A model generated the notes under the pieces. It was not told where the DNA came from, made no database searches, and saw nothing but the letters and a program-made list of their open reading frames with translations. The translations under genes and the position numbers were made by a program. Source: Kiritimatiellia bacterium (GTDB lineage: Bacteria; Verrucomicrobiota; Kiritimatiellia; B70-G9). From it: 42,879 nt of DNA. Location: assembly GCA_029934055.1 (NCBI GenBank), contig JAOZMZ010000006.1:1-42879 (forward strand), given 5' to 3'. The stretch's first letter is position 1; every line of letters starts with the position of its first letter. This document shows positions 7,361-40,502 of the stretch, one piece after another.

Positions 7361-7425
7361 CTTCCCGCCCGGGAGCCTGGTGCGCGTGTGCTCCCGAGCC
7401 GGTTGCATATTACTCTATGCTCATT

Positions 7426-10017: not shown

Positions 10018-10054
10018 CACCTGCGACAACCTGGTTGAATCCGTCGCCGACCTT

Positions 10055-10876: not shown

Positions 10877-10954
10877 GCTCTCCTCCACGTCAAAATTCTC
10901 CGCAACAGAGCCGCCCTCATCCTGCCCCAGGCGGCTCTTCCCTTGCAAGGGCCT

Positions 10955-12004: not shown

Positions 12005-13134
12005 CCCCGATCTTTCCGACCGGTCTCCTCGAGAACATCGAGGAACCGCGCACTGCAGCTTTCGATCGAGAAGGCGGCCGCGGTCGCCGCCACGTCCTCG
12101 GGCGAGACACCTCCCGCGGATGACCATCCCACCACCTCGCGAACGGCCGCCACCATCTCCGGAATACGGTCCGGACGCGAGATCACCGCACCGTTCTTCC
12201 CCCTCTGCACGATCTCCGCCGCCCCGCCGAAGACCGTGGTCACCACGGGCGTCCCACATGCAATCGCCTCAAGGACGACATTCGGAAAGGCGTCAAACCA
12301 AGTCGGTAACAGGAATATGTCGGCGGCCCGGTAAAGCGGGGCGAGATCCGCCTGGGGGTTCAGAAAGCGCACGCGCCTGCTCAATCCAAGTTCTTGAGTC
12401 TGGCGCCTCCAATGAGTCGTCGAATCGCGTCCGACCACCAGGAGGAAGACTTCCGGAAGGTGAACAAGCGCCTGCAACAGGTTCTTCAATCCCTTGCGCC
12501 GGAAGCCGCTGCCGGCGAAGAGCGCCAGGACGAGATCCTCCGGAACGGCGTATCCGGCGCGAATCCTCCGGCGGGCCTCATCACGTCCGGCCGGTGAAAA
12601 ACGCTCGTGATCCACACCGTTGTATATCACGTCTATCCGCGGCGCCCCATCGCCGTAAACCCTCAGAATGTCGTCCCGCACCATGCGCGAATTGGCAACA
12701 ATCCGCCGGACGGCGCCGACACAGCGCCGTTCAAGCGCGATGATCGCCCGCTGCCCGGGCAAATGCTCGTTCAGCAGGCAGCGCATGCGCGGCTCAAACA
12801 AGCGCCTTCTCTCCAGCCACACGCGATGAACCCCTTCCCCCGCCCGCCATATGTCCTGGTACTCGGTGCGGTCAAAACTCAGACTCACATCAAACTGATT
12901 GCGGTGCAGAAAATCGGCCGCGGCCGCGGAAAAAGACCGCATCCGCAAGGCCCTCGTCGCGCGCCGGTGCGAAAGAACATGCACCCGATACCCATCATCC
13001 CCGGCCGGCGGCCAGTAACCCGTCAACAGGTGAACTGCGTGACCACGCTCAACGCAGGCGTGCATCAGGCACGCCAGGACACCCTCGCCGCCGCCGAAGG
13101 GAACGAACTTTTGCTTGATAAAGGCGATCTTCAC
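12001..13134 (-). CDS. Glycosyltransferase family 4 (WaaG/RfaG-like)
   Basis: VKIAFIKQKFVPFGGGE...FLLPTWFDAFPNVVLEAIACGTPVVTTVFGGAAEIVQRGKNG is a GT4 signature. The GTG start at 13134 overlaps the upstream stop (GTGA). The track's longer start at 13302 would overlap the GT2 gene by 170 nt. Confidence 0.8.
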   Translation of the reverse strand: MKIAFIKQKFVPFGGGEGVLACLMHACVERGHAVHLLTGYWPPAGDDGYRVHVLSHRRATRALRMRSFSAAAADFLHRNQFDVSLSFDRTEYQDIWRAGEGVHRVWLERRRLFEPRMRCLLNEHLPGQRAIIALERRCVGAVRRIVANSRMVRDDILRVYGDGAPRIDVIYNGVDHERFSPAGRDEARRRIRAGYAVPEDLVLALFAGSGFRRKGLKNLLQALVHLPEVFLLVVGRDSTTHWRRQTQELGLSRRVRFLNPQADLAPLYRAADIFLLPTWFDAFPNVVLEAIACGTPVVTTVFGGAAEIVQRGKNGAVISRPDRIPEMVAAVREVVGWSSAGGVSPEDVAATAAAFSIESCSARFLDVLEETGRKDRG

Positions 13135-13928
13135 CGCCCCCCCCCACCGGAGTCCGGCTTGCTCCGCCCGCGGTTGTATTCGATCTCCCAAATCTTGGCG
13201 TATTTCATCGCCACGCCGAAGGCACTGATCCCGGAAATCAGCAAACCCCGGAATCCGTCCAGGAAACCGAGTTTCAGGAAATAGCCCTTGAAAAAACGCC
13301 AAGGCGGCCGCACGAAAAAATCACGCCAGCGGAATGGAATCCCAGAGGCATGTTTTTCTTGGGCGGTTATCGTGGTGAATCTGTTCAATGTCCTCAGGTG
13401 CTCTTCAATACTCTCATAAGTATAGTGATTCAGGTGTCCGTGAAGCGTCTTTACCGGGCCGTCCACGACGACGTGGTCGTGCGGCTCGCGCCCCGCGCTG
13501 CGCCCCCTCTCTTTCAAAAAAAGGCGCAACTTGATATCAGGATACCAGTCACCGTGATAAATCCACTTGCCGAGATAGAACACGCGGCGCGGAAACTGGT
13601 AGCCCACGAAAGGACCCGTGCCGCGCTCGAACTCCTGCAATATCTCTTCCCGCAGTTCATCGCTGACCTCTTCGTCGGCATCCACGAAAAGGATCCAGCA
13701 ATAACGCGCCATTTCCCGGATGAGATTCTTCTGGCCGATATACCCGAGCCATTCATGCTGGTAGACCCGATCGGTGTACTCCCGCGATATTTCCACGGTC
13801 CGGTCGCTGCTGAAACTGTCAACCACTACGATTTCGTCGCACCATGTCAGGCTTTCCAGGCAACGCCTGATATTGCGCTCCTCGTTTCCCGCAGTCACAC
13901 ATGCAGAAATTTTCGGTCTTGTTCCCAT
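13131..13928 (-). CDS. Glycosyltransferase family 2 (WaaE/KdtX-like LPS core type)
   Basis: ISACVTAGNEERNIRRCLESLTWCDEIVVVDSFSSDRTVEI...ILFVDADEE is the GT2 DxD architecture, with the domain order typical of small LPS-core GT2 enzymes. Confidence 0.85.
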   Translation of the reverse strand: MGTRPKISACVTAGNEERNIRRCLESLTWCDEIVVVDSFSSDRTVEISREYTDRVYQHEWLGYIGQKNLIREMARYCWILFVDADEEVSDELREEILQEFERGTGPFVGYQFPRRVFYLGKWIYHGDWYPDIKLRLFLKERGRSAGREPHDHVVVDGPVKTLHGHLNHYTYESIEEHLRTLNRFTTITAQEKHASGIPFRWRDFFVRPPWRFFKGYFLKLGFLDGFRGLLISGISAFGVAMKYAKIWEIEYNRGRSKPDSGGGGR

Positions 13929-13931
13929 CGG

Positions 13932-14939
13932 TCAATGCACCCCTGTCCGCTCGATCACACGTTCCAAGCGGCGGTAGACCGTCTCCGGCTGAATCAGGGC
14001 GAGACGCCGCCGCGCCTCCAGGGAATCCCGGGGCACATCACGGCCGACTCCTCCCGGCGTCCGCACCACCTCAACCACCCGGCCCAGCGGCCCGGTCACC
14101 TCCGGATCGGTCACTCCGAAAATCACTACCACCGGTGTGCCTACCGCCGCAGCCACGTGCGCGCCGCCGCTGTCGTTGGCCACCGCCGCCCGACAAGATT
14201 GCAACAGCGCCGCAAAAAGGTCCAGCCCGCCCCGCCCGGCAAGACTGCGCGCCCCCCGGCCGATGCCTTGCGCCACTTGCCGACACAGTCTTTCCTCGCC
14301 CGGCGCGCCCAGTACGGCGATGCCGGCCCCCATGCCGGCCCGCAGAAGGCGCCCGAGCTCAATGAAATGTTCCGCCGGCCAACGCTTTGAAGGACCCCGC
14401 CCGGCTCCCGGAACCAGGCCCACCCGCGGCTCGTCCAGTCCCTCCAACAAAGCCTCGGCCCGCCGGCGTATTGCACCGCCGATCTCCAGCGCGGGATACT
14501 CCAGCCCGCCGGACGCCGCGGATTCCGGTGCCAACAGGCCCATGTATTCCCAGGCCTGATGGCGGCGGGCAGCATCCGCAACCTGCCGCCGCACCTCCGT
14601 CAGCATCCAGTCGCGCCCGTGTCCCGGAAACCCGATCCGCTCGGGTACCCGTGCCAGATATGGAACTAACGCGGAACGAAACGAATGCGGCAAGACGTAG
14701 GCCCGCCGCACCTGCGAATCCCCGACCGCCCGCGCCGCCCTGACAGTCCCCCGCATGCCGGCCCGCAACTCGATGAGCCGATCCGGAACCGCGTGCAGCC
14801 GCCACAGTGCCGCCACCTTCGGTTTCACCAGCATGATCACCCTCGTTGTGGGATTCATTCTGCGGAAGGCCTGCAATGCCGGCATGCTCATGATACCGTC
14901 ACCGACCCAATTCAGCCCGCAGACCAGCACTTCATCCAC
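13932..14939 (-). CDS. LPS heptosyltransferase (GT9, WaaF/WaaC type)
   Basis: VLVCGLNWVGDGIMSMPALQAFRR...NDSGGAHVAAAVGTPVVVIFGVTDP are GT9 heptosyltransferase motifs. GTG start with a GGAGGTG RBS. Confidence 0.85.
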   Translation of the reverse strand: MDEVLVCGLNWVGDGIMSMPALQAFRRMNPTTRVIMLVKPKVAALWRLHAVPDRLIELRAGMRGTVRAARAVGDSQVRRAYVLPHSFRSALVPYLARVPERIGFPGHGRDWMLTEVRRQVADAARRHQAWEYMGLLAPESAASGGLEYPALEIGGAIRRRAEALLEGLDEPRVGLVPGAGRGPSKRWPAEHFIELGRLLRAGMGAGIAVLGAPGEERLCRQVAQGIGRGARSLAGRGGLDLFAALLQSCRAAVANDSGGAHVAAAVGTPVVVIFGVTDPEVTGPLGRVVEVVRTPGGVGRDVPRDSLEARRRLALIQPETVYRRLERVIERTGVH

Positions 14940-14967
14940 GGCAACACCTCCGGGCAGTCAGCCCGTA

Positions 14968-16188
14968 TCAGCGGAAACATATCCGCGCAATACAGTCATT
15001 GAAATCTTCCTCCCCACTCAGCAACTGAATTTCGACGCGCAGGAAGAAAAGCGGTATGTCGCGCCGCGCCACACGCGGAATGCGGACGGCATCCTTTTCA
15101 GTGGTGATCACCGCCTCGGCGCCGGCCTGCATGCCGCGGTTGATCACGTCGATGATTTCCTGCTCGGCATAACGGTGATGGTCGGCATAGCGCTCCCGGT
15201 ACACCACCTCGGCCCCGAGCCGTTCGAGTTCCTCTTCGAAACCCCAAGGCGCGGCTATGCCCGAAAGTGCCGCAACCTTGCGCCCCTGCAGGTATTCCAG
15301 CCCCTCCCGTTCGGCCGTATACACGTTCTGCAGGTAGCGGGGATGATGCCGGCATTCGGATACCTCAGCCGATGTGTTCCAGCGCCGCAGCTCGCGGCGC
15401 AATTCCTCGGCCCCGTCTCCGTCGGACTTGGTAATGAAAATGAACCCGGCCCGCCGGATGTTCCGTACCGGCTCCCGCAATATTCCGCGCGGCAGAACAT
15501 GGCGGTTGCCGAAAGGATTGGTGCGGTCCACCAGAACGATATCCAGCCGGTGCTTCAATGCCAGGTACTGGAAACCGTCATCCAGTATCAGCGTGTCACA
15601 ACCCAATTTCTTGATCGCATGCTGCCCCGCCTTGACCCGGTTCTTGTCCACCAGAACCGCAACCTTCGGCAGATTGGCCGCCAGCATGTAAGCCTCGTCG
15701 CCGGCCGCCGCCGAATCCAGCAAAAGCCGCCGTCCGTCAGATACCACCAGCGGCTCGCGCCGCCGGTCGCGGAACGTGATCTTCTGCACCAGGCGCTCCC
15801 ACAAGGGCGGCTTGACGCTCTTGTAACCGCGGCTGAGAATCGCCACCTTGCGCCCGCTCTCCTGAAGGGCCCGCGCGAAGATCTCGACGATGGGCGTCTT
15901 GCCCGTCCCTCCTACAGTAAGATTCCCCACGCTGACGACCTGGCACCCAAGCGTGTGATGCCGCAGGATGCCGTGGGTATACAGCCACAGCCTGATCTGA
16001 ACCGCCGTCGCATACAGGTGCGAGAGTTGCTTGAGCAGCCACCGCAACAATGCGGCTACTCTCCCGCGCTGACGTCCTTCAATGACGCCCAGCAAATAGG
16101 TTTCCGCCCGTTCGAGTCGTGTCTGGCTCACGGCAAATAATCCAAATCGTTGACCTTCAGCCGCCTCTTTCTTACGGCATGTTGCCAT
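14968..16188 (-). CDS. lpxK: Tetraacyldisaccharide 4'-kinase
   Basis: [40 protein letters not shown] is the LpxK P-loop signature. The track start at 16200 is TTG, so I used ATG 16188. A downstream GTG (VSQTRLER) is also possible. Confidence 0.9.
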
Positions 16189-16223
16189 CCCCGGCGACAA
16201 CCCGTCAAGTTGCGCACACCCGG

Positions 16224-17264: not shown

Positions 17265-18956
17265 TCACTGCAACGGCACGGCGCTGTCACTGTCCGGCAC
17301 ATCCACGACCGCCGCTTTCAACAAGTCCGCCGGCTCGGCGTAACGATCCTGGAGAATGCCGTCGTAGAAAACACTGATCACATATCCATAATATTCCCGT
17401 TCGCGTCCCGTCTCCGCCTTTTCCTTCTGCCTGAGACCATGCGGAACCATCCAGGCCGCACTCAACGCGCGGCGGCGCCCGACACCCCATTTGCCCTTCA
17501 TTTTCAACTCCCTCGCCGGAACCAACCCCGTCGTCGCCGCAATCTCCCCGTTCGATTCGACGCGGTCGAAAAAATCAACCAGCACCCTGACATCTTCCGC
17601 CCGGATCGAAGCCCTGCCCGAACGCCGCCGCAATACGAAGTTCACCACACGCATATCATCAAACTCGGAACCCGAAGGCCCGACCCTCTCCATCCGTACG
17701 TCCTCGATCCGAATCCTCCGCGGCAAGCGCTCTCCCCCGGAAGGCGCCTTCCTCCTCCTGACCGAACGCCGCAACGCCTGCTCATGCGCCACCCGTTGAC
17801 GCTCCGCCGCGGCAAATTTCTGCCACGGCCCCACCGGCGCCCTCTTGATGATCCCCGCCCACTGTTCTCCGGCTTCGTCGAGCATCCCGCGGCTTTCGAA
17901 AAGCCGCGCGCGCTCTACGTAGGCCGGGAAAAAATCAGGGACGATAAGCTGGATCCTTTCGAGCTCATCGTCCGCCTGCGGAAAGGTGTGGCGCTGTATC
18001 TCGAGACGTGCCTCTTCCAGCATGTCAGCCGCCAGATCGTACAACGGATTGTCACCGCCACCGGTGAAGTCGGGCTCCTCAAGTCGTTTTCCGGCGGAAG
18101 CACCGGCAACGCCGGCCGCCGCCGTGGTGACTTTCTCGGTCCGGGTGGTCACCCCTCCCGCCGCCACGCCGGCCTTTTCCGGCCCAGCCCCCTCCTGTCC
18201 CACCGCGGGCCGCACTCCTGCTCCCGCCGAGGGAGTTTCTGTTGCACCGGATGCGCCCGCCTCGCCGGAATCTTTCCCCACCGTCAAGTTACTCGAAGCA
18301 CCACCGGCCGCCTGTATCCCGGTTTCCTCTTCAACAGCGGCCACGGTCACTGTCGCTACCGACGCAGGTTGGCCCGTGCCCGCAACAGCTCCCGTCGCGC
18401 CCGCGGCTTGGGCTCCCTCAGCCGTACCACCGACGGCCGCCGCTTCCACCGCAGAGGCTGTCACAACCGCCGATGTGCCTTGTGCCGACGCCTCTCCCGA
18501 ATCGGCAAAGCTCGCGACACCGCGATCGGCCCGCCAAAACGAAAGGACCACCAGGAACACAATCTCCAGAAGGACTACCAACGCCACGAGACCGAACGTA
18601 ATGCCCTGGACGTGTCCGATCCGGCGCGCCTGGTCGCCGCCCCCTTCCTTGACACGGTGAAACCTGATCCGAACCCCGCCCACCTCGATTTCATCGCCGT
18701 CCGCAAGTTCCGCTTCGTCGACATCCATCCCGTTGACGGTCAGGCGGCCGCTGCTGCTCAGGCGCTGAATGCGCACGCGTCCGGCGCTGTCCTCATCAAT
18801 GGAAAGGTGCTTCCAATCCACGCCCTCGTCATCGAGATGAATGTGACAAGCGCGGTCCCGCCCGATCAGAACCGTACCCTGACGCACGATCAAGCGCCGT
18901 CCCTGAAAGGGACCCGTCAAGAAAAGCAACCTGTACACCTGCCGCCTCCCGGGCAT
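17265..18956 (-). CDS. FHA domain membrane protein with an Ala/Gly/Thr-rich linker and an uncharacterised C-terminal domain
   Basis: The N-terminal ~100 aa are FHA-like (VLIGRDRACHIHLDDEGVDWKHLSI...RLTVNGMDV...GDEIEVGGVRIRF). Then come one TM helix (ITFGLVALVVLLEIVFLVVLSFW), ~140 aa of low complexity, a TPR-like helix pair and a ~180 aa beta-rich tail. Confidence 0.85.
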   Translation of the reverse strand: MPGRRQVYRLLFLTGPFQGRRLIVRQGTVLIGRDRACHIHLDDEGVDWKHLSIDEDSAGRVRIQRLSSSGRLTVNGMDVDEAELADGDEIEVGGVRIRFHRVKEGGGDQARRIGHVQGITFGLVALVVLLEIVFLVVLSFWRADRGVASFADSGEASAQGTSAVVTASAVEAAAVGGTAEGAQAAGATGAVAGTGQPASVATVTVAAVEEETGIQAAGGASSNLTVGKDSGEAGASGATETPSAGAGVRPAVGQEGAGPEKAGVAAGGVTTRTEKVTTAAAGVAGASAGKRLEEPDFTGGGDNPLYDLAADMLEEARLEIQRHTFPQADDELERIQLIVPDFFPAYVERARLFESRGMLDEAGEQWAGIIKRAPVGPWQKFAAAERQRVAHEQALRRSVRRRKAPSGGERLPRRIRIEDVRMERVGPSGSEFDDMRVVNFVLRRRSGRASIRAEDVRVLVDFFDRVESNGEIAATTGLVPARELKMKGKWGVGRRRALSAAWMVPHGLRQKEKAETGREREYYGYVISVFYDGILQDRYAEPADLLKAAVVDVPDSDSAVPLQ

Positions 18957-23504: not shown

Positions 23505-24617
23505 TTGATCATGCCGAAAGAAAGATCCAAGGACATCTACGAAACCCGCTGGCCGCATGAGCAACCCCAGGGATTCGTCCGGCGCGGACAGCGCTCGATA
23601 TATTTCGACCTGGCGAAACAGGCACGCGCCTGGCGCCGGCGCACGATCATGCTGACATCCCTGCTGTTCATCGTGCTGGCGGCCATCGGCGTACTTTCGA
23701 TCATCAGTTCCCGTCCTCACGAAATCAATCCTCCGCCGTCGCGACCAGCGGCCTCTCCTAAAGAAAACATCCTCAACGTCAGCCGTGTCTCCCGCATCCA
23801 GATCACACCCGAGGCCTCGCTCCTCATAGACGAACTCGGCAACCAACCCGCCCTTGAGCCACCCGCGGAAGCCAGCGCCCCTTTCGATACACGCTGGCTG
23901 AAGCAGGCTGCTTACTATCTGGTGACGGCCGAGAAAGCCTATCGCGACGATCGCATGGAGGACGCCCTCAGATATTTCAGCAACGTTTTGAAAATATTCC
24001 CCGACCTGCAGGGCGTGCAGCGCTATTTGGGTCTCATATACCTGCGCCTGCAGGATTATTCTTCGGCGGCCGTGGCGTTTGAGAAGGCTTCCCGCGAAAA
24101 CGCCGCCTCGGCGGGCGTCGCCAATAATCTCGGGGTGGCGTACCTGGCCCTCAAGGACTATCTCCGCGCCGAACAGTATCTCAAGCGTGCCCTTGCATTG
24201 AAACCGGACTATGACCCCGCGATCCTGAACCTGGCCACCCTTTACATCCGCCGCAATGACAAGGCTCAGGCCGCCGTCTATCTAAGCCGCTACCTTCAGG
24301 TCAAACCCGGAGATATCAAGGCAGCCCAAACCTATGCTTCCATCCTGATGGACATCGGCAAGTGGGACCAGGCGGTGGTCTGGCTCAAACGCGTCTGCGA
24401 CAGCGTACCCAGCCTGGCCCCGGCTTACTTCCGGCTGGCCCAGGCATTGGCACATACCGGACATGATCAGGAAGCCATCGCCACGCTCCGGCATGGCGCC
24501 ACGCTTATCGACCCGCGCAAGGCACTCGCCTGGCTCTCGGCCGGATCATTCGATCCGATCCGCAAACATCCGGACTTCCAAAAGCTCGTGTCGGACCTCA
24601 GCGCAGCCGGCAGGTAA
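23505..24617 (+). CDS. Membrane-anchored TPR repeat protein (paralog of 22082..23302)
   Basis: Same architecture: cytoplasmic tail, TM helix (LTSLLFIVLAAIGVLSIISS), linker, TPRs (LGLIYLRLQDYSSAAVAFEKA, LGVAYLALKDYLRAEQYLKRALALKPDY). The C-terminal ...FDPIRKHPDFQKLV parallels ...QQPAFKEIRLTDL in the neighbour. Confidence 0.8.
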   Translation: MIMPKERSKDIYETRWPHEQPQGFVRRGQRSIYFDLAKQARAWRRRTIMLTSLLFIVLAAIGVLSIISSRPHEINPPPSRPAASPKENILNVSRVSRIQITPEASLLIDELGNQPALEPPAEASAPFDTRWLKQAAYYLVTAEKAYRDDRMEDALRYFSNVLKIFPDLQGVQRYLGLIYLRLQDYSSAAVAFEKASRENAASAGVANNLGVAYLALKDYLRAEQYLKRALALKPDYDPAILNLATLYIRRNDKAQAAVYLSRYLQVKPGDIKAAQTYASILMDIGKWDQAVVWLKRVCDSVPSLAPAYFRLAQALAHTGHDQEAIATLRHGATLIDPRKALAWLSAGSFDPIRKHPDFQKLVSDLSAAGR

Positions 24618-27018
24618 ACCGCCCGCCCCCACGGGGAAAAACCAGTTCGACCACATCATCCCCGCGCACCTCGACAATACAATTTCCATCCGGCCGGCCC
24701 TGCCGATAGGATTCCCACCATCCATAGCGCAGTCCGGCCGCCTGCAACCAGCGCCGCGGGTAGCCGATCCCGCCGTTCACAATCAGGAAAGGACGATAGG
24801 CCCGCAGGAACGCCGCCTCCCGTGGCCCCGGCGATTCGTTCATGTAACGAACAAGCACCACTTCACGACGGCCGCTGATTTTTCCCATCGCGGACAGGCC
24901 CTGCACCAATCGCGGAGGCGCCGCACCCGCCAGCATGACGGCAACCCCACCACGTTCCAATCGCAGTACGAGCGCCGCCGCACCCGCTCTCCGCGAAATG
25001 ACACCCTTGCGCGGTGCCAGTATCTCCCACCACACCCCTCCCGGCCATTGCCCCTGCATCCCGCTGTGAGCATACCGCACCTTAACGTCTCGCCGCCGTG
25101 CTTCCGCCAGGAAAAGGTCAAATGTTCGCGAAGAGACCGCAGACGCCGCATACCAGATTTCATCAACCTTCATTCGTTGCAGCAACTCGACCGCACCCCC
25201 CATACAGGCCGAGATCGGCCGGCTGACCACAAACACCCGCAGCCGGTTGCATCCCCTCCGGTGTAATTCTCTGAGTATCCTGCGGGTGCTCGGTCCCCTG
25301 CCGCTGTCCACCAGCACGTCCGCCGTTCCCGGCAGATCAATCAGGACCGGCAGCGTGTCACCGCCGTCGAAAACAGTTACGCTCGCCGTACCCCTCGTCC
25401 CGATCAGCGACAAAACAACCGCAGACGCCGCCAGGCCCGTCACGGCGGCCCGCCGCATGCGTCTCTTCCCAGTGACGATCGCCAGAATGCTGCCGTACCA
25501 GACAAGCAGGAACCACACCGGCGGCGCGCGCACGTACATGTGGCCCCACGGCACCTTCCCCAGCAATTCCACGACCTTGAGCAGTAATCCCGCGAAAACC
25601 ACATTGGCGTTGTTGAACACCCCCGCCAGCGGAGGAACCGCAAAACCCGCCACCAGCGCCAAGCATCCGGTGAACACCACAAGAAAAGCCCCCGGGACCA
25701 CAAGAATGTTTCCCACGGCGGCCGCCGGTGAAAATGTATTGAAATAGTACGCCGTCAGCGGAGCTGAAAACAGCCACGCCGCAAGAGATATACACCCCAG
25801 CCCGACAACCCCCGCCGCCGCTCGATACAGTGCCCTGCGCGCCACCCCGGAACCGCCGGCCGACCACGGCTCCTCAACGGGCACCAGAGAACCGACTCGA
25901 CCCGCCCACGGCAAGAACAGCATGATCCCCGCCACCACGGCAAATGACATCTGAAACCCGGGCTCCAGAATCTGACGCGGCGCAAACAACAGGATCAACA
26001 ACGCCGCCGCCGCCAACGCCGAGGGACCATCCGGGCGCCGCCCGAACAGCGGCGCCGAAAAGAACAACAAGGCCATTATGCATGCCCGTACGGCACTGGC
26101 CTTCATCCCGGTCGCCAGCGTATAAACCAAAAGGATCGGAGCAAGACCGGCAATCCACCAGCGCCGCGATAAGCCGAACGCCCGCAGCATGCCCACCGCC
26201 AAAGCCGCAATCATCCCCACGTGCAATCCCGAAATGGCGAAAATGTGCAATGTCCCCGTCAGCGCAAAGTCCCGCCGCACACGTTCCGGCAGGGCATCGC
26301 GATACCCCAGCAACAGCGCCCGCAGGAGCCCCGCCTCCACCCCTTCACCCTCAATCCCCATGCCGAGTATCTCCGCGCAATGCCTGCGGCCGCGCAGGCA
26401 GGCCTCCACCAAGAAATTGCCATGCCCACCCGCCAGGCGACGGTACTGCCCCCGCCCCACCCTCATGGTGTATCGCCGCAGCGGCGCTGCTCCTTCGCCG
26501 GCCGTCAATACCCCGCTCAATTCCATTCGATCCCCATATCGCGGCCTTCCCCCTTCCTCGTCTTGCCGCAGATATACCCGCACAACTCCTGCGGCTCTCA
26601 TGAGACTCCCATCCCGGTCGAAACCGTCCACCCGGAAAGGAAAGCGCCATACTCCGCCATTCTCCGCCCGCCTGCCGGCCTGTACGGGGTCACCGCCGAC
26701 AACCCCCGTCAAACGCACATATTCCCGTCCGGCACTCACACGTCGCCCCAGGTCCAGCGGGGAGACCACTCCGGCATTCGCCGCCGCCGCCGCTCCTGCG
26801 GCACAGGCCACCGCGGCGTAGACAAAAATCAACCCGCCCATCCTGCGGTATAGCAAAATCGCTCCCACACCGGACGCCATCCCCACGAGAACGAACGCCA
26901 GGATCCTTTCCGGTGAAAAAAGCCCGCAAGAGGTCCCCACGGCATAAGCCGCCGCCAATCCCACCAGCGGCCGTCGGATGAAAAACTCATATTTCACCGA
27001 GGACCTCCCCCCCCACAT
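24598..27018 (-). CDS. comEC: ComEC/Rec2 family DNA internalisation channel protein with a C-terminal metallo-beta-lactamase-like domain
   Basis: N-terminal OB/DUF4131-like region, then a polytopic core with LTGTLHIFAISGLHVGMIAAL (ComEC competence motif), then a C-terminal soluble domain. The start is ambiguous (track TTG 27024, ATG 27018, or GTG 26997 with a GGGAGG RBS). The 3' end overlaps the convergent TPR gene by 20 nt. Confidence 0.85.
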   Translation of the reverse strand: MWGGRSSVKYEFFIRRPLVGLAAAYAVGTSCGLFSPERILAFVLVGMASGVGAILLYRRMGGLIFVYAAVACAAGAAAAANAGVVSPLDLGRRVSAGREYVRLTGVVGGDPVQAGRRAENGGVWRFPFRVDGFDRDGSLMRAAGVVRVYLRQDEEGGRPRYGDRMELSGVLTAGEGAAPLRRYTMRVGRGQYRRLAGGHGNFLVEACLRGRRHCAEILGMGIEGEGVEAGLLRALLLGYRDALPERVRRDFALTGTLHIFAISGLHVGMIAALAVGMLRAFGLSRRWWIAGLAPILLVYTLATGMKASAVRACIMALLFFSAPLFGRRPDGPSALAAAALLILLFAPRQILEPGFQMSFAVVAGIMLFLPWAGRVGSLVPVEEPWSAGGSGVARRALYRAAAGVVGLGCISLAAWLFSAPLTAYYFNTFSPAAAVGNILVVPGAFLVVFTGCLALVAGFAVPPLAGVFNNANVVFAGLLLKVVELLGKVPWGHMYVRAPPVWFLLVWYGSILAIVTGKRRMRRAAVTGLAASAVVLSLIGTRGTASVTVFDGGDTLPVLIDLPGTADVLVDSGRGPSTRRILRELHRRGCNRLRVFVVSRPISACMGGAVELLQRMKVDEIWYAASAVSSRTFDLFLAEARRRDVKVRYAHSGMQGQWPGGVWWEILAPRKGVISRRAGAAALVLRLERGGVAVMLAGAAPPRLVQGLSAMGKISGRREVVLVRYMNESPGPREAAFLRAYRPFLIVNGGIGYPRRWLQAAGLRYGWWESYRQGRPDGNCIVEVRGDDVVELVFPRGGGRFTCRLR

Positions 27019-27031
27019 ACCCAACCCCCGT

Positions 27032-31417: not shown

Positions 31418-31467
31418 GTAAAACGTTTTAATAAACGATGGCTTGATGTGTGGAAAGGGTATCGGCG

Positions 31468-32418
31468 ATGAAGAAATTGCTTCCGATTCTCACTATTATC
31501 AGCCTTGGAGCGCTGGCGGGATGGTGTGCTGTGGTTGACTACGGCGCGGTCGACACCAGTGATACCCACCCGACCGTGGATGGATCTATAGGTGCAGGTG
31601 AATATGACCTCTCCGTAGCGGTACAAAATACAGGCTTCGGAGGGTTGTTCACTCATTTCTATGCGGACAGCGATGGAGAAAATCTATACTTCGGCGTAAA
31701 GTACAGCTCGTCCTTCGTAGACAACAACGCCATCGTCATCTATCTGGACAGCGATGCAGAGAAAAACCAGTCCTCCGTCTACGCGGGCGCGCGTTATCTG
31801 AGCGACGTAACCGACAACAGTAACTTCACTGAAATGTCGGCCGCCTTCCAAGGCAACAAAGACGGAGATCAGAACAATGATCCCGGATGGGGAACCGGAC
31901 CGAATTCATATGTCTTCGACGCCGACTTCGCTTTCGTGGTGGACGGTTACGCCGGTAACATCAGCGGCACCGCTACGGGTGATGCGGGCGACGGGAACCA
32001 GATGGCGTGCTACGGCTTCGACGTCGCTGATCTGAGCGATCTTGATTGGATCAGTTTCACCTACGCCAACAGTGACGGTAACGGCGTAGCCGAGTTCAGC
32101 ATCGCCATTTCGACGATGACCAATTACGCCCCCGCAAGTCTGACCGGAATCCTGAGCACCAATCCGGGCAACTATGAGGTGTATTTCTCGGCCCTGCTCC
32201 TCAATGCCGACAATGCTTGGCTGAGTAACGAATCCGTTCCGGCCGCCCACACATCCCAGGGCAACGGCTACATTGATGTCGTCAACGTCGGATCCTTCAA
32301 CTGGACGGTCAACGGCCCCGGGGACGGCGCCGTCCCCGAACCTCATACGGCCACATTGGCGATCACCTTCGGCCTCGTGCTGGTAGGAATCCGCCGCCAT
32401 CTGCGTCGCAAGGCCTGA
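31468..32418 (+). CDS. PEP-CTERM sorting-domain secreted protein
   Basis: N-terminal signal peptide (MKKLLPILTIISLGALAGWCA), an Asp/Gly/Asn/Ser-rich beta-type body, and C-terminal VPEP + TM (HTATLAITFGLVLVGI) + basic tail (RRHLRRKA), which is the exosortase sorting signal. GC is noticeably lower than in the flanks. Confidence 0.85.
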   Translation: MKKLLPILTIISLGALAGWCAVVDYGAVDTSDTHPTVDGSIGAGEYDLSVAVQNTGFGGLFTHFYADSDGENLYFGVKYSSSFVDNNAIVIYLDSDAEKNQSSVYAGARYLSDVTDNSNFTEMSAAFQGNKDGDQNNDPGWGTGPNSYVFDADFAFVVDGYAGNISGTATGDAGDGNQMACYGFDVADLSDLDWISFTYANSDGNGVAEFSIAISTMTNYAPASLTGILSTNPGNYEVYFSALLLNADNAWLSNESVPAAHTSQGNGYIDVVNVGSFNWTVNGPGDGAVPEPHTATLAITFGLVLVGIRRHLRRKA

Positions 32419-32596: not shown

Positions 32597-34405
32597 TCAC
32601 CCCCTGATGGCGGCCAGGCGGCGCCCCAGTTCCGCCCCGATGGCCTGGACAAGACGGACGTCCCGGCGACTGAAGCGGCGCGGGTTGTGAATCGCAACCA
32701 GAAAGATGTCGCCGCTGCGGACCAGCGTCAGTGGTCGGCCCTCAATAAAGACCGTAAGAGATTCAAGTCCGCCCATGTCGAGTTGCTTTATGTACCAGGC
32801 GATTTTCTTGTAAATCTGGGGCGCGAAAGCCCCCAGCGCTTCACTGTGATCATCTTCCCAGCTTGATGTCACCAGGTAGCCTTCACGGTGCGCCACTACG
32901 CAACCCTCGAAACTCTCAATGGTGGCGAAGCGCGCGGCCACGCCGCGCACATCCGGCAACCCATCGCGGGTATGCCCCAATATCATGTTGATCACGCCTG
33001 CATTGCGGAAAATATCTTCGCGCAACTTTATTCCTGTGATGCGTTCAAAGGTCTGCCGGCCGAGACCCGGTACGCGTGCCAGGTCCAGAAGGTTGAAGAA
33101 CGGTCCATTCTTCGAACGGTCGGCCACAATCCGCTCCGCCAGGCGCCTTCCCACACCGTCCAGCCGCCGTGCAATCTCATCGGCCCCCGCACTGTTGAGA
33201 TCCATACCCTTGAGAAACAGGTAGGCGCGTTCTTCCATCTCCTCGGCAAACACGGGCGGCACCTTCTCGCCGACGGACTCCTCCTTGCCCTCCTCCGGCA
33301 CACCCTGTACAAGCTCAGCCGCCGGCGCGCTTGGCGTCGAAACCACCGTACCCGTATCCACGGCGGCTGCCGGGGATTCCTCAGCCCCGGCGCCCTCCGC
33401 CGAAACCTCAAGCGGCTCGGCCGCACGCCCCTCTTCCGCCTCCGGCGCACGGGCCTCAGCAGAAAAAGCCGCCGCCTCCTCCACCGCTTCCTCGGCTTCC
33501 TTTGCTTCCGCCGGTAACCCGACATCTTCTTCGACTGCGGCAGCTGCCGGCTCCTGGTCGGACATCACCGTCGCTTCCTCCGAAACTTCCTCAAAGCTCT
33601 CGGCAACCTTCGACTCCTCTGCCGCCGGCTCCTCCTCCACACCCGCCGCTGCTTCCACCACTTGGGGCCCAACCTCCTCGCCCTCATGCGAGACCCCCTC
33701 TTCCGAGACAGCCCCTTGCGCCGCGGACGCCTGTGTCTCAGGACCGGGCTCCGCAACCGCACCACTCGTCTCCACAGTCACCTCTCCGGCCGCCACTTCC
33801 CCGCCTGCTCCGGGTGTAAACAAATTGGGAAGTTCTTCCGGAATTGAAACCTCTTCCGACGACATCCGCTTTAACAGTTCATCTTCAGGTATTGCACTGA
33901 CCACCGCCGCCAGCGGCAAGGTGACCTCTTCTTTGGCATGTGCCACCCACCCGTCGGCCATGAATTTGTCCGGGATTTCGGAAACCACGTCCGATACCAC
34001 CGCACTTACGCGCCCGCGTGCCAACTGATCGAACACATCATGTACCACAACCCCAACTTTTATCCCGGCCCGGGATGCCTCCGCAGGATCACGCAGGATA
34101 CTTTCCGGCAGGGTGGTGGCCAGGTCGCTCAAGGATATCTCAAGGGTCATGCTCTGTTCGGATATGGCCGTGCTTCCCCCTTCGTCATCATCCTCCCCGA
34201 TGATCTCATTGATCTCGGCCAGCTGCCGCCGTATCCTGTCGAGCTGACCGAGTTCCGTCTCTTCGCCGGACTCCTCGGATGGAGCCACAGCCGGAGAGTC
34301 CGCAGAAGAAGAATCAGCATGCGTCCCGCGTGGTTCCTCTTTCGCTGAAGGAACCTTTTCCTCCCCCTTGACGCCGTGCCTGAAAATGTTACCCAAGAGT
34401 GACAC
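32597..34405 (-). CDS. Acidic multidomain protein: N-terminal repeat region, Glu/Ala-rich disordered linker, ComEA-like helix-hairpin-helix module, C-terminal Roadblock/LC7 domain
   Basis: HhH: LNSAGADEIARRLDGVGRRLAERIVADRSKNGPFFNLLDLARVPGLGRQTFERITG (ComEA C-terminal pattern). Roadblock-like tail: VRGVAARFATIESFEGCVVAHREGYLVTSSWEDDHSEALGAFAPQIYKKIAWYIKQLDMGGLESLTVFIEGRPLTLVRSGDIFLVAIH. Start set at GTG 34405, 7 nt after AGGAGG; the track start 34465 is TTG. Confidence 0.8.
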   Translation of the reverse strand: MSLLGNIFRHGVKGEEKVPSAKEEPRGTHADSSSADSPAVAPSEESGEETELGQLDRIRRQLAEINEIIGEDDDEGGSTAISEQSMTLEISLSDLATTLPESILRDPAEASRAGIKVGVVVHDVFDQLARGRVSAVVSDVVSEIPDKFMADGWVAHAKEEVTLPLAAVVSAIPEDELLKRMSSEEVSIPEELPNLFTPGAGGEVAAGEVTVETSGAVAEPGPETQASAAQGAVSEEGVSHEGEEVGPQVVEAAAGVEEEPAAEESKVAESFEEVSEEATVMSDQEPAAAAVEEDVGLPAEAKEAEEAVEEAAAFSAEARAPEAEEGRAAEPLEVSAEGAGAEESPAAAVDTGTVVSTPSAPAAELVQGVPEEGKEESVGEKVPPVFAEEMEERAYLFLKGMDLNSAGADEIARRLDGVGRRLAERIVADRSKNGPFFNLLDLARVPGLGRQTFERITGIKLREDIFRNAGVINMILGHTRDGLPDVRGVAARFATIESFEGCVVAHREGYLVTSSWEDDHSEALGAFAPQIYKKIAWYIKQLDMGGLESLTVFIEGRPLTLVRSGDIFLVAIHNPRRFSRRDVRLVQAIGAELGRRLAAIRG

Positions 34406-34787
34406 CTCAACACCTCCTGCGATTCGCCGCTTACCATCAATAAATCTACAACATTTCGGAAGCAATTAACATGCCACCGATGGTTTTCCCCGCTCTCTTC
34501 TTGATATGCCGGCGCCACCATGGACTCTTCTTTAGCAGACCCCGCAGGTAGGCGCCCCCCGCCTGTTTGCTGAAGCCGTGCAAGACCCTTGGCTGCGGAT
34601 CACCCTGTCAATTTCGCATTTATGCAAAGTAACACTTCACCTTTGAACTGAAGGAACCCGGCTCTCCGCGACAGGATCCCACCCGCGAGTGCTTCCTCTC
34701 CGGGCGGCATCACGTGCAGCGACACCATATCTGTCAATCCAGTAGCCGCCACTCCCACCGCCCGCCCGCCGGCCGTACCGATCCGCC

Positions 34788-34815
34788 CATCCGGCGCGTC
34801 ATCCGGAACATCCGG
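34788..34815. repeat. Three direct copies of CATCCGG (spacing 12 and 9 nt) in the mglA upstream region
   Basis: CATCCGG is read directly at 34788, 34800 and 34809. The last two copies occupy the position where a -35 element would sit relative to the TGcGATAAT element. Confidence 0.5.
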
Positions 34816-34826
34816 ATATCCCGCGA

Positions 34827-34835
34827 TGCGATAAT
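34827..34835 (+). promoter_or_regulatory. Candidate extended -10 promoter element (TGcGATAAT) for mglA
   Basis: TG-n-GATAAT lies ~60 nt upstream of GTG 34896. There is no good -35 element; the CATCCGG repeats sit there instead. Confidence 0.3.
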
Positions 34836-34895
34836 GGCTTGGCCCGCGGCATGATTTCTGCTCTTATGCGGTTAGATCGTTGTGGAGGTGATACC

Positions 34896-35537
34896 GTGGC
34901 GTTCGTCAACATGGCCCGCAAGGAGATTGCTTTCAAGATCGTCTATTACGGCCCCGCCCTCGGCGGCAAAACTACCAATCTGGAACAGATACACGGGGCC
35001 ATACAGCCTGAATCCCGCGGAGAGTTGACCATTCTCTCGACCCGTCAGGACCGCACCCTCTTCTTCGATTTTCTGCCGCTTCGTTCGGATATAATCCGCG
35101 GATTCTCTTCCAAGTTTCAACTCTACACTGTACCCGGACAGACGATTTACAATGAAACCCGTAAGCTCGTGCTGCGCCATGTGGACGGCATCGTATTCGT
35201 AGCGGATTCCCAGTGGGAAAAAATGGAAGACAACACGCTCAGCTTTCAGAACATGCAGGACAACTTGCGCGAACAAAACACCTCGATCGATCAGATTCCG
35301 TACGCTCTGCAGTACAACAAACGCGACCTTCCCAACATCGCACCGGTCCACTACATGGACTTCCTGCTTAACCGCCGTCGCGTGCGCGTACCCCGTTTCG
35401 AATCGATCGCCATCGAGTGTCGCGGCGTGTTCGAAGCGCTCAATACGGTTTCCCGCATGGTCTTGGCGGCTTTCATCCGCGAACACCGCCTCGGTCACGG
35501 GGAACTGCCCGAAGACGTCTGCATTTCAAAAGAGTAG
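34896..35537 (+). CDS. mglA: Ras-like small GTPase MglA
   Basis: [32 protein letters not shown]...[16 protein letters not shown]...[33 protein letters not shown]...[14 protein letters not shown]...[14 protein letters not shown] is colinear with my recollection of Myxococcus MglA ([63 protein letters not shown]). GTG 34896 has GGAGG 7 nt upstream and restores the conserved N-terminus. Confidence 0.92.
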   Translation: [213 protein letters not shown]

Positions 35538-35542
35538 GGCGA

Positions 35543-36025
35543 ATGTATTATTCAATGACCAGAGAGCTGAGCGAAAAAATCGAAACCCTCCTATCCGACC
35601 TGCTCGTGCGGGCTGAAGCCGACGCAGTATTCCTGTGTGACCGCGGCGGCAACATCATGGCCCAGAAGACCACCGAACACTATGTTCACGAAGAAAACAT
35701 CGCAGCCCTGGCCGCCGGATCTTTTTTCGCCACCAGGGAACTTGCACGGTTGATCGGCGAACCGGAATTCAAGTATATTTTCCACCGCGGAGACCGCACC
35801 AGTATCTACATGCAACATACCCCGCTGGATATGTTGCTGATGGTGGTATTTGGAAAGGCCTCCAATCCGGGCATCGTGAGGCTGTACGCGGAGGAAACCG
35901 TCCGTTCCCTGGCCCCGCATATCGAGAAAATCGCCGGCCCGGATGAGACAGTGGGCCTGAATATCGAAATAGACCGGAGTCAGGAACCTTTCAAACGTGC
36001 AACCGAGCCCGAAAAAACAGGATAA
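35543..36025 (+). CDS. mglB: Roadblock/LC7 protein MglB (MglA GTPase-activating partner)
   Basis: ADAVFLCDRGGNIMAQ...NIAALAAGSFFATRELARLIGEPEFKYIFHRGDRTSIYMQ...MLLMVVFGKASNPGIVRLY parallels my recollection of Myxococcus MglB (AKVVFLVDKNGQLIS..LASLTAGNVAAMGGLAKLIGENEF..FHEG..LVVIFD..LGLVRL). It starts 5 nt after the mglA stop. Confidence 0.88.
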   Translation: MYYSMTRELSEKIETLLSDLLVRAEADAVFLCDRGGNIMAQKTTEHYVHEENIAALAAGSFFATRELARLIGEPEFKYIFHRGDRTSIYMQHTPLDMLLMVVFGKASNPGIVRLYAEETVRSLAPHIEKIAGPDETVGLNIEIDRSQEPFKRATEPEKTG

Positions 36026-36827
36026 CCAAAAAAACGATTCGGAAGCCTCCGCTGCCGGCGGACCCCCTCCCGGACACGGCAGCGCGGAATATTTCCTGCT
36101 CCTGATGGGAGTCGTCATTCCCTTGCCGGAAAACAAGGAAACCGTACTGGGCCGCGATGAAGACTTGTGTGACGTGGTCCTCGTTGATCACCGTGTCAGT
36201 AAACGTCACGCCACGATCTTCTTCCGCAGCGGCCGATTCTTCATAAGTGACCTCGAAAGCCTCAATGGCACCTTCCTCAATGGACATCAGCTCAAACAAA
36301 CCGCTCCGTTGGTCGCCGACGATGAAATCCTGATAAGGCCCTACAAGATATCATTTGTGGGAAGTGACCATCCGGAAGTGGCCCGCACATCCCGCCGCGT
36401 GTTGGTTTCCAACGCCAGCCGCCATTCCGGCCATTTGGCCGGATCACTGGAAATATTCTCCGTGATAGACGTAATTCAATTGCTGAATGCAACCCGCCAG
36501 AACGGCATCCTGCGCATTACCGATTCCCACCGCCGCGGCGCCAGTCTCGTTTTCGCGGATGGCGAAATAATAGCCGCCACCTACGGGAAACTAGCCGGTG
36601 AAGAGGCGGTCATCGCCGTAGTCCCTCTCCACGAAGGACACTTCGACTTTATGCCGGGGCCACCCCCGAAAACGCCCATCCCCATCCCCAAGAAAACACT
36701 CACCCTCCTCCTGGAGGGCTGTCGGCGTTTGGATGAAGAACGTCCGGCACAAGAAAGCGGCCGGACTGAGGACGAGAAACTCGGCCCGCGCACCCGCCGT
36801 ATCGTCCGTATTTCCGGAAGGAAATGA
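35997..36827 (+). CDS. FHA domain + DUF4388 (PATAN-type) domain protein
   Basis: FHA: TVLGRDEDLCDVVLVDHRVSKRHATIFFRSGRFFISDLESLNGTFLNGHQL. DUF4388-like: GSLEIFSVIDVIQLLNATRQNGILRITDSHRRGASLVFADGEIIAATYGKLAGEEAVIAVVPLHEGHFDF. The only in-frame start I found upstream of the FHA core is GTG 35997, which overlaps mglB by 29 nt. Confidence 0.8.
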   Translation: MQPSPKKQDNQKNDSEASAAGGPPPGHGSAEYFLLLMGVVIPLPENKETVLGRDEDLCDVVLVDHRVSKRHATIFFRSGRFFISDLESLNGTFLNGHQLKQTAPLVADDEILIRPYKISFVGSDHPEVARTSRRVLVSNASRHSGHLAGSLEIFSVIDVIQLLNATRQNGILRITDSHRRGASLVFADGEIIAATYGKLAGEEAVIAVVPLHEGHFDFMPGPPPKTPIPIPKKTLTLLLEGCRRLDEERPAQESGRTEDEKLGPRTRRIVRISGRK

Positions 36828-38349: not shown

Positions 38350-39177
38350 ATGGCCAAACTGTTGAAGCCGCTGATCGTAGTTCTGCTCGTCCTCAGTATC
38401 GTTTCCCTGGTCTTGGGAATAATGCTCTTCGGCCGCAGAGAAGTCCTCAAAGGCCGCGCCGCAAAATTTGAAGACGCCGTAGTCAAGTTCGCGGAAAAGA
38501 TCCATTTCGAACAGCTTGACCGACAGATGTTGCAGGACTACGCAGCAATGCAAGTACCCCTCGAGCATCTGGCGGCCTTTGCCGACAACCAGTATGAAAA
38601 ACTTCAGAATACCATCCAGGACTTGGACAAGACCCGCGGCGAACTACAGCAGGCCACCAACCGTATCGTCGAACTGACCGCCCATCTGGAGGAAACCCAA
38701 CAGAAAGTCACAGAGCTGCAGGATCAGCTCGAGGCCAAAGACGTCGAACTGGCACAGGCCAACAGCCGCGTCGACCAGTTGACGCAGGACAAGAGTCTCC
38801 TCGAGGAGCAAGTAAGCAAGCTCAATGACAAACTCGTGGCGGCCGAAGAACAAACCCGGGACCTGCAGGACCAGGTGACAACCCTGGAGAATACCGTTCA
38901 AGACATGGAGGTACGCCTGGGCGAACGCTTGGCGGCCCCACTGCCCAAAGGACTCTCCGGCCACGTTCTCGTCGTCGATCCATATTGGAATTTCGTAGTC
39001 CTGGACATCGGCAGCAAGGACGGACTGGCGCCCAGCGCCGAAATGCTCGTGCACCGCGGCGAGAAGCTTGTCGGAAAGGTCCGCATCAGCTCAGTCAAAG
39101 AGAAAATGGCGATTGCTGAAATCGTGAGCGACTGGGAACAAGTCCCCATACGGGAGGGTGACTATGTTCTCTACTAA
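38350..39177 (+). CDS. Membrane-anchored coiled-coil protein with a C-terminal MreC-like beta-barrel-type domain (hypothetical)
   Basis: N-terminal TM helix (LLKPLIVVLLVLSIVSLVLGIMLF). About 130 aa of heptad-rich Gln/Glu/Leu sequence follow (LQQATNRIVELTAHLEETQQKVTELQDQLEAKDVELAQANSRVDQLTQDKSLLEEQVSKLNDKL...). The tail is GHVLVVDPYWNFVVLDIGSKDGLAPSAEMLVHRGEKLVGKVRISSVKEKMAIAEIV...IREGDYV. Confidence 0.8.
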   Translation: MAKLLKPLIVVLLVLSIVSLVLGIMLFGRREVLKGRAAKFEDAVVKFAEKIHFEQLDRQMLQDYAAMQVPLEHLAAFADNQYEKLQNTIQDLDKTRGELQQATNRIVELTAHLEETQQKVTELQDQLEAKDVELAQANSRVDQLTQDKSLLEEQVSKLNDKLVAAEEQTRDLQDQVTTLENTVQDMEVRLGERLAAPLPKGLSGHVLVVDPYWNFVVLDIGSKDGLAPSAEMLVHRGEKLVGKVRISSVKEKMAIAEIVSDWEQVPIREGDYVLY

Positions 39178-40427: not shown

Positions 40428-40502
40428 TGGAGGCGCGGACCGGATTCGAACCGGTGAATACAGGTTTTGCAGACCCGTGCCTTACCACTTGGCTACCGCG
40501 CC
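40428..40502 (-). tRNA. tRNA-Cys (GCA)
   Basis: Minus strand GGCGCGG UA GCC AAGUGGUAA GGC A CGGGU CUGCAAA ACCUG UAUUC ACCGG UUCGAAU CCGGU CCGCGCC U CCA gives a full cloverleaf. It has anticodon GCA, discriminator U73 (the Cys identity element) and an encoded CCA. Confidence 0.93.

Follow-up and report, generated by a model that had tools for sequence, protein, structure and literature searches.

The small Ras-like GTPase MglA and its partner MglB form the best-understood bacterial polarity switch of this kind, and nearly all mechanistic knowledge of it comes from Myxococcus. There, the circuit is completed by the lineage-restricted partners RomR, RomX, RomY, and MglC. The Roadblock paralogue MglC binds MglB and RomR in Myxococcus xanthus (PMC4719450, PMC7949163, PMC10329633). 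A gene neighborhood that unites MglA/MglB with a PATAN (DUF4388) protein is already reported in PMC4316618, which cites Makarova 2006, and the PatA-type PATAN domain of cyanobacteria acts as an output domain that binds the N-terminal domain of PilB1 as well as PilC (bioRxiv 10.1101/2021.06.11.447907). Here, we analyze an mglAB locus at positions 32,597 to 36,827 of a 42,879-nucleotide (nt) contig from a Kiritimatiellia bacterium (JAOZMZ010000006.1, assembly GCA_029934055.1; the whole contig is hereafter called the window). At this locus, mglA and mglB are followed by a gene for an FHA-PATAN protein, and a gene for a ~600-amino-acid (aa) protein with helix-hairpin-helix (HhH) and Roadblock domains, here called the hub, diverges from them.

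We read the locus, with moderate confidence, as an MglA/MglB spatial switch of the Planctomycetes-Verrucomicrobia-Chlamydiae (PVC) lineage that most likely controls the place or the timing of activity of a type IV pilus-like (PilB/PilC) machine. It resembles the systems of M. xanthus and Thermus thermophilus in its MglA, which is ~57% identical to that of M. xanthus and keeps the TVPGQ motif, the intrinsic Arg, and the NKRD motif, in the adjacent MglB, and in the link to pilus genes seen among its relatives. It differs from them in gene order, which is mglA-mglB here, whereas mglB comes first in the myxobacterial loci of our set, in its sigma-54-type promoters, and in its place in the PVC superphylum. 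Relative to M. xanthus, MglA carries extra C-terminal residues, MglB departs at two positions taken up below, and no RomR, RomX, RomY, or Frz genes were seen in the contig. Together with ~40 relatives, the window locus suggests that PVC bacteria use another, conserved solution, built from a Roadblock-HhH hub, plug-in sensor-PATAN adaptors, and sigma-54 control. The MglAB-PATAN core is already known; the hub family, the FHA-PATAN variant, the swapping of sensors, the sigma-54 promoters, and a fifth, coiled-coil gene are new.

RESULTS

An MglA-MglB pair with a divergent partner

An earlier reading of this DNA, made from the sequence and its open reading frames (ORFs) and referred to here as the original prediction, named four genes, all of which are present with the claimed domains in the ORF list and in Pfam. 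Pfam scans were made on the larger ORFs of the window, and the gene and pil-type negatives reported for it refer to the contig of 42.9 kb rather than to the whole genome. The mglA gene (34896..35537, + strand) encodes 213 aa, and its translation contains all family hallmarks, namely the P-loop GPALGGKTT, the segment DRTLFFDF, YTVPGQ, and YNKRD, along with the intrinsic Arg of switch 1; in TVPGQ, Thr replaces the usual G3 Asp and the catalytic Gln is present. Pfam returned weak Arf/Ras matches, and comparison with M. xanthus MglA (PDB 6h17) gave an E value of 1.8e-59 over query residues 21-212, with the ~57% identity obtained by manual count. The GTG start codon at 34896 aligns with the MSFINY start of the M. 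xanthus protein. At the other end, MglA of this clade extends beyond M. xanthus MglA by a tail of ~15 residues, HRLGHGELPEDVCISKE (35480-35537), which is covered by tblastn alignments only in the closest ~20 loci. The closest MglA relatives in GTDB species genomes come from uncultured Kiritimatiellia and "Verrucomicrobiota" metagenome-assembled genomes (MAGs), at no more than 76% identity.

The mglB gene (35543..36025, + strand) begins 5 nt past the mglA stop codon and encodes a 160-aa homologue of the Roadblock GTPase-activating protein (GAP). It matched Robl_LC7 (6.8e-9; 35.8 bits against a gathering score of 23) and MglB in the PDB (6hjm, 8.4e-14), and it scored 56.9 bits with the NCBIfam MglB equivalogue model, under the cut-off of 200. 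The two genes are adjacent in 56 of 56 PVC loci. The PDB matches, family motifs, and adjacency uphold the identities originally proposed for both proteins. The spacer between mglA and the hub gene (34406-34895) measures 490 nt, in agreement with the ~490 nt first estimated, and gave no match in an Rfam search. A PADLOC search for antiphage defense found no match for the four proteins of the module.

A hub protein with HhH and predicted Roadblock domains

The hub gene (32597..34405, − strand) encodes 602 aa, arranged as a conserved N-terminal domain, an acidic disordered linker, a ComEA-like (HhH)2 module, and a C-terminal Roadblock domain. Its start at 34405 agrees with a 602-aa gene call in the database and with the MSxL N-termini of homologues. 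The protein has an isoelectric point of 4.4, and no membrane segment or signal peptide was found in it (highest 19-residue Kyte-Doolittle hydropathy, 1.09); from its sequence, it is predicted to be cytoplasmic. An AlphaFold2 model built from a shallow 12-sequence alignment contains two confident folded regions separated by ~200 disordered residues.

The C-terminal region (32603..32950, − strand; residues 486-601) is assigned to the Roadblock/LC7 fold, with an extra C-terminal helix, by profile comparison and structure prediction. As a single sequence it scored 21.9 bits with Robl_LC7, slightly below the gathering score of 23, and 21 of 70 hub-family members matched at E ≤ 1e-3. A profile of 33 sequences matched the solved Roadblock structure 7f8f at 5.4e-12, followed by dynein LC7 and LAMTOR2. 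The predicted topology is α-β-β-α-β-β-β-α, with a predicted local distance difference test (pLDDT) score of mostly 80-93 across the block. In a Foldseek search of the PDB, all 50 listed matches were Roadblock proteins (target-normalized template modeling score, 0.44-0.71), including p14/MP1, LC7, an Asgard Roadblock protein, and the MglB proteins of T. thermophilus and M. xanthus. These results bear out the second Roadblock domain that had been proposed for the end of an acidic ~600-aa protein.

The N-terminal alpha/beta domain (33860..34153, − strand; residues ~85-182) consists of four beta-alpha units and is duplicated in some relatives. Its pLDDT exceeded 90 in the full-length model and was 83-90 when the domain was modeled alone. 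Foldseek found no match to its fold in the PDB (best E, 2.5), no Pfam family covers these residues, and in long proteins with multiple repeats of the domain, Pfam detected HhH only. A profile of the domain searched against 1.84 billion cluster representatives recovered 376 clusters (50% identity, E ≤ 1e-3), mostly of 500-800 aa, and HHH_3 was present in 66 of the 70 family members scanned. Other queries were less productive: the full-length hub gave 4 matches in the protein database, where a C-terminal query performed better, and an alignment of 48 N-domain sequences gave none there, probably because low-complexity linkers swamped the word-based selection of candidates.

Between the folded regions, the linker (33254..33853, − strand; residues ~185-384) is 24% Glu and 21% Ala, and its pLDDT is mostly below 50, with higher values in a short predicted helix at ~300-318. 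The HhH pair that follows (33032..33208, − strand; residues 400-458) matched HHH_3 in Pfam (6.6e-15), TIGR00426 (1.1e-13), and ComEA in the PDB (8dfk, 1.8e-5). Both G-x-G hairpins are conserved; G417 and G419 are invariant, and the PGLG hairpin is kept. The resemblance to ComEA is confined to this module. ComEA is anchored or secreted and has ~100-250 aa, whereas the hub is predicted to be cytoplasmic, is fused to Roadblock, and at 602 aa is three to five times longer; with the full-length comE model it scored 28.9 bits against a cut-off of 152. The name "ComEA-like," carried by hub homologues in several databases, fits the HhH module only and is a misannotation of the whole protein.

Among known Mgl partners, MglC is comparable in that the hub too is a second Roadblock protein that accompanies MglAB, but the likeness is one of analogy and not of homology. 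MglC is a stand-alone Roadblock protein of ~120 aa, in contrast to a ~600-aa chain that fuses an N-terminal domain, (HhH)2, and Roadblock, and no chain named MglC occurred among the listed sequence or fold matches of the hub Roadblock domain. With RomR, the hub shares the use of a long acidic or Pro-rich disordered region to join folded modules; RomR has an N-terminal REC domain along with Pro-rich and Glu-rich regions, whereas Pfam found no Response_reg domain in the hub. No homology of the hub to MglC or RomR was found beyond the Roadblock fold. Eukaryotic Ragulator/LAMTOR and the Asgard Roadblock-GTPase pairs resemble the present case in that a Roadblock platform is encoded with a small Ras-like GTPase; in sequence, the Roadblock domain of the hub matched an Asgard Roadblock protein, LC7, and LAMTOR2 best. 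The hub differs from these in being bacterial and a multidomain fusion. Literature searches found no relevant description of an HhH-Roadblock/MglB combination and no relevant report on MglA in Lentisphaerae; the hub family, together with its N-terminal domain, appears to be undescribed. This domain was absent from the original prediction, as were the sigma-54 promoters and the co-conserved fifth gene described below.

Conservation of the gene set

Eighty MglA loci (56 PVC and 24 other) were mapped with domain profiles built from the window proteins, and hub counts were restricted to the PVC loci with at least 2.5 kb upstream of mglA (n = 45). The hub gene diverges from mglAB in 34 of these 45 loci and is absent from all 24 loci of Myxococcota, Prosthecobacter, Sumerlaeota, and other groups. 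Its architecture is fixed across loci: an N-terminal domain that is sometimes doubled, a disordered acidic or Pro-rich linker, (HhH)2, and a C-terminal Roadblock domain. An FHA-PATAN gene follows mglB in eight GTDB loci (L001-6, L009, and L022). In a reciprocal test, three of three metagenomic contigs picked through hub homologues showed the hub gene divergent to MglA-MglB-FHA/PatA_N, and the full four-gene order was present in 11 further loci, 3 of which had been selected by the hub and not by MglA. The four genes thus travel together, rather than mglAB alone, and the hub C-terminus scores and folds as Roadblock, so the first two tests on which the original prediction had staked itself leave it standing.

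A possible fifth component of the module is encoded at 38350..39177 (+ strand). The 275-aa product begins with a transmembrane helix, contains a coiled coil, and ends in a small barrel with a weak MreC-like match, and PADLOC returned only generic coiled-coil matches for it. The gene directly follows the FHA-PATAN gene in six relatives (L003, L006, L009, L022, L085, and L087), of which L085 and L087 encode proteins 42-46% identical to that of the window; in the window itself, the gene is set apart from the module by an intervening GT4 gene. Any role for this protein in the module is suggested by its gene position.

Two other Roadblock arrangements were seen outside the hub-bearing loci. In seven loci of Prosthecobacter/Verrucomicrobiaceae (L060, L066, L068, L073, L075, L076, and L080), a protein of ~900 aa is encoded directly upstream of mglA on the same strand; a C-terminal Roadblock domain is its only recognizable part, no separate mglB was detected at these loci, and it is a different Roadblock-fusion solution. 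Loci of Sumerlaeota (L058, L059, L062, and L063) and Ignavibacteria (L079) share another conserved layout, in which one or two extra Roadblock genes and an extended MglA (330-400 aa) accompany MglB. These loci also encode a 420-455-aa PATAN protein whose DUF4388 match is split; its gene lies after mglB in Sumerlaeota and upstream in L079.

A candidate FHA-PATAN adaptor with interchangeable sensors

The third gene of the mglAB unit (35997..36827, + strand) encodes 276 aa with an FHA domain (nt 36141-36335; Pfam 3.6e-18, 66.2 bits against a gathering score of 20.7) and a PATAN/DUF4388 domain (nt 36438-36740, residues 148-248; PF14332, PatA_N; 2.2e-18, 66.9 bits against a gathering score of 25). 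The GTG at 35997 is the sole ATG, GTG, or TTG codon upstream of the first FHA strand, and with this start the gene overlaps mglB by the 29 nt first noted. The overlap as such is not kept among relatives: taking the longest ORFs, it could span 44 nt in L001/L002, and in other relatives the genes are separated by gaps of 2 to ~60 nt. Their tight same-strand spacing is conserved. The FHA residues G52, R53, S68, H71, and N90, which make up the GR, SxxH, and N signature, are invariant in nine orthologues, and by this signature the domain is probably functional as a reader of phosphothreonine.

Of the 34 PVC loci with sufficient sequence on either side, 15 have the module flanked by a PATAN gene. 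The other domain of the PATAN partner varies: it is FHA in the window clade, PAS-PAS in L015 and L019, MshEN-REC at the corresponding position of L020, a long N-terminal stretch without an identified domain in L007-L014, and Roadblock, as a PATAN-Roadblock fusion, in L025-27 and L032. FHA is therefore one among several interchangeable PATAN inputs and not a fixed feature of the module. The Ser/Thr-kinase input that the original prediction derived from the FHA domain finds support insofar as the phosphothreonine-binding residues are invariant among the orthologues, but it does not extend to the module at large, in which the input varies. Ser/Thr kinases are encoded within 8 kb of the module in six loci (L014, L019, L021, L040, L046, and L050). 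The layout of the window protein can be set against the PatA-type PATAN-REC regulators PixG, PixE, and PatA: in both, PATAN is the likely output domain toward PilB/PilC, but the PatA-type proteins have a C-terminal REC domain, whereas in the window protein FHA lies N-terminal to PATAN and Pfam found no REC. The PAS, MshEN-REC, and Roadblock partners of the relatives are likewise unlike the PatA-type layout.

In the four loci with the PATAN-Roadblock fusion (L025, L026, L027, and L032), the fusion protein has 235 aa, its gene lies directly 3' of mglB, and an additional MglB-like gene is present upstream of mglA. A second FHA protein is encoded in the window at 17265-18956 (− strand; 563 aa), with FHA at residues 12-101 and no Pfam match in the remainder. 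The related loci showed no homologue of this protein, which might be part of the same Ser/Thr-kinase signaling network as the module.

Sigma-54-type motifs in the divergent spacer

A sigma-54-type −24/−12 motif, TGGCATGTTAATTGCT (34461..34476, − strand), precedes the hub start codon by 55 nt and is correctly oriented for the hub gene. With one mismatch, it is the best match to the sigma-54 consensus in the window and the sole one at that level. A weaker sigma-54-like motif, CGGCATGATTTCTGCT (34847..34862, + strand), lies 33 nt upstream of the mglA start and has three mismatches, with the GG and GC elements kept; the same YGGCAYG-N4-YTGCT variant also occurs upstream of mglA in eight relatives (L002, L003, L006, L009, L020, and L085-L087). 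Across 40 loci, hub-sense motifs with at most one mismatch were found in 9, against 0.18 expected from shuffled sequences (maximum, 3 in 300 shuffles). With two mismatches allowed, the counts were 12 of 40 in the hub sense and 9 of 40 in the mglA sense, each against 1.5 expected. The three loci selected by the hub have the motif in both directions, with 0, 0, and 2 mismatches in the hub sense. Scans for sigma-70 promoters and terminators in turn yielded chance-level results. From the enrichment of sigma-54 motifs, the hub and mglA units appear to be driven by conserved divergent sigma-54 promoters. Such motifs fit control by a PilR-like enhancer-binding protein, of the kind that is encoded, as a REC-sigma54 activator, beside pilC in L029 and L088.

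Pilus genes beside the module in relatives

The ORFs around hub loci were clustered, and recurrent ones were scanned with Pfam. In three MAGs of Victivallales/Lentisphaerales (L016, L019, and L029), the hub gene is followed by a gene for a TPR-MshEN protein and then by one for a PilB-type ATPase (MshEN plus T2SSE); in L016 and L029, the series continues with PilC (T2SSF) and a REC-sigma54 activator. At the only locus that was read further (L016/L088), these are followed by a type IV pilin with a PDB match to PilA/geopilin at 1e-8. Elsewhere, hub, PATAN, an unknown gene, and pilB lie on one strand (L035/36), and a T2SSE ATPase gene is located 3' of mglB in L033 and L079. If a few such ATPase genes were scattered at random in each genome, the module would, by a rough estimate, adjoin pilB ~10-fold less often than it does. 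The MshEN-T2SSE type of PilB homologue is common in Kiritimatiellia MAGs; among the best 80 loci of a pilB scan, no assembly contained the exact four-gene set.

Two candidates from these loci were set aside. A 357-aa ORF between the hub gene and pilB in L016 is a shadow ORF (Arg/His rich, with no matches), the real gene being that of the TPR-MshEN protein on the other strand, and the identification of a 351-aa ORF in L088 as PilM was unconfirmed by a PDB sequence search.

The original prediction had described the module as self-contained, with unknown output. This description needs revision: hub-mglAB adjoins pilB in sister lineages, and PATAN is a published binder of PilB and PilC.

DISCUSSION

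A candidate switch for a pilus machine

Drawing on domain identities, folds, co-conservation, promoter-motif enrichment, and the adjacency of pil genes in relatives, we infer the contacts between the proteins, their GAP and scaffold roles, and a pilus output in this genome as follows. MglA would cycle between GTP- and GDP-bound forms, and the MglB Roadblock dimer would, by homology, serve as its GAP. The hub would provide a second Roadblock platform, tethered by its long acidic linker to (HhH)2 and the N-terminal domain, and may bind MglB or MglA so as to localize or tune the switch, as MglC and RomR do in Myxococcus. The PATAN protein is a candidate adaptor to the pilus motor, by analogy with the PATAN domains of cyanobacteria, which bind PilB and PilC. 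In the window lineage, an FHA domain reading a phosphothreonine mark might gate this adaptor, in which case Ser/Thr-kinase signaling would feed into the switch. Putative sigma-54 promoters would drive both transcription units, as expected under a PilR-type activator.

Several observations weigh against this interpretation. As the original prediction had noted, the window is without pil genes and without glt, frz, or rom genes, as judged by Pfam on its larger ORFs. Adjacency to pilB is a minority arrangement, seen at ~5 of 40 hub loci, and the module adjoins pilB in just 2 of 80 PVC pilB loci. To our knowledge, the cultured Kiritimatiellia and Lentisphaerae are non-motile cocci, so the classical front-rear polarity of motility may not apply. 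A (HhH)2 DNA-binding module in a cytoplasmic hub has no explanation in the proposed mechanism. Finally, where M. xanthus MglB has A64 and G68, two residues needed for MglA binding, Phe and Glu occupy the aligned positions in window MglB, and details of the MglA-MglB interface may therefore differ here.

Alternative readings

The lack of pil genes in the window, together with neighbors of envelope function (GT4, MurJ, LpxK, and a PEP-CTERM protein), would also suit a self-contained four-component module that acts on neither pili nor motility but, for example, on envelope or polysaccharide biogenesis or on division in a coccoid cell. The co-conserved transmembrane coiled-coil protein, with its weak MreC-like barrel match, and the absence of the module from most PVC pilB loci agree with such a role. 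We nevertheless hold it to be unlikely. The envelope neighbors are not conserved across relatives; the sole recurrent functional neighbors beyond the module are pilB/pilC, genes for MshEN-domain proteins, a sigma-54 activator, and kinases; and the PATAN domain has documented partners in the pilus motor.

A second possibility, to which we give slightly less credence, is that the hub is merely co-regulated with mglAB through the shared sigma-54 promoters and that its Roadblock domain is the dimerization module of a nucleoid-associated protein. Roadblock domains are generic dimerization platforms, and the hub domain resembles LC7 and Asgard Roadblock proteins in sequence more than it does MglB; no MglB occurred among its profile matches, and BLASTP detected no similarity between it and window MglB. 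Yet hub and mglAB have stayed adjacent despite class-level divergence (Kiritimatiellia versus Lentisphaeria), whereas other neighbors changed, a stable divergent pairing usually marks functional partners, and the pairing of Roadblock proteins with GTPases is a recurrent theme.

Type IV pili are the usual machines of DNA uptake, and the least probable reading is that MglAB positions or gates a DNA-uptake pilus and the ComEC channel rather than serving motility, with the hub as a ComEA-like DNA binder in the cytoplasm. In its favor, the HhH pair of the hub is ComEA-like, with hairpins conserved family-wide and HHH_3 in 66 of 70 members, and the ComEC competence channel (24598-27024, − strand; next to ThiD) is encoded 5.6 kb away; L006, L009, and L085 show synteny of the ComEC-ThiD block with the module. 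Against it, no signal peptide or membrane anchor was found in the hub, whereas ComEA works in the periplasm or beyond the membrane. The synteny is confined to the closest relatives and lies among housekeeping genes (ThiD, TsaD, and CtpA), and no dprA, comF, or recA gene is linked to the module.

Implications

For the spatial switch that we favor, a more specific and bolder form can be put forward tentatively, as doubtful but conceivable. The hub might regulate MglA/MglB as the representative of a new class that is confined to Kiritimatiellia and Lentisphaeria, namely a Roadblock platform tethered to the nucleoid (DNA) and bearing an N-terminal fold not seen before. It could then be the missing third regulator (a guanine nucleotide exchange factor, a GAP modulator, or a landmark) in lineages seemingly without RomR and RomX and, together with interchangeable sensor-PATAN adaptors that would be gated here by kinase and FHA, could let coccoid, non-rod cells place the pilus machine relative to the chromosome.

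The locus supplies candidate proteins for biochemistry and a defined case of possible Ser/Thr-kinase (FHA) input to an Mgl module. Should the hub prove to bind either MglA or MglB, the range of Roadblock-GTPase regulation in bacteria would widen, which would be relevant to the origin of eukaryotic Rag/Ragulator-type systems.

Other features of the window

By Pfam, the remaining large ORFs of the window are housekeeping and envelope genes and genes for ComEC, TPR proteins, the second FHA protein, and a PEP-CTERM protein. An envelope biogenesis cluster at 8437-16200 (− strand) encodes MurJ, two GT4 enzymes, a GT2 enzyme, a GT9 heptosyltransferase, and LpxK. The PEP-CTERM-type protein (31450-32418, + strand) was recognized by eye from its C-terminal VPEP motif and transmembrane helix. 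An S-adenosylmethionine (SAM) riboswitch at 7253-7363 (− strand; 59.8 bits against a gathering score of 44.4) lies upstream of the gene for O-acetylhomoserine sulfhydrylase (5801-7192); the gene after it encodes an alpha/beta hydrolase and is read as metX. Two tRNA genes were found, one complete (40431-40502, − strand) and one truncated by the end of the contig (42822-42879, + strand).

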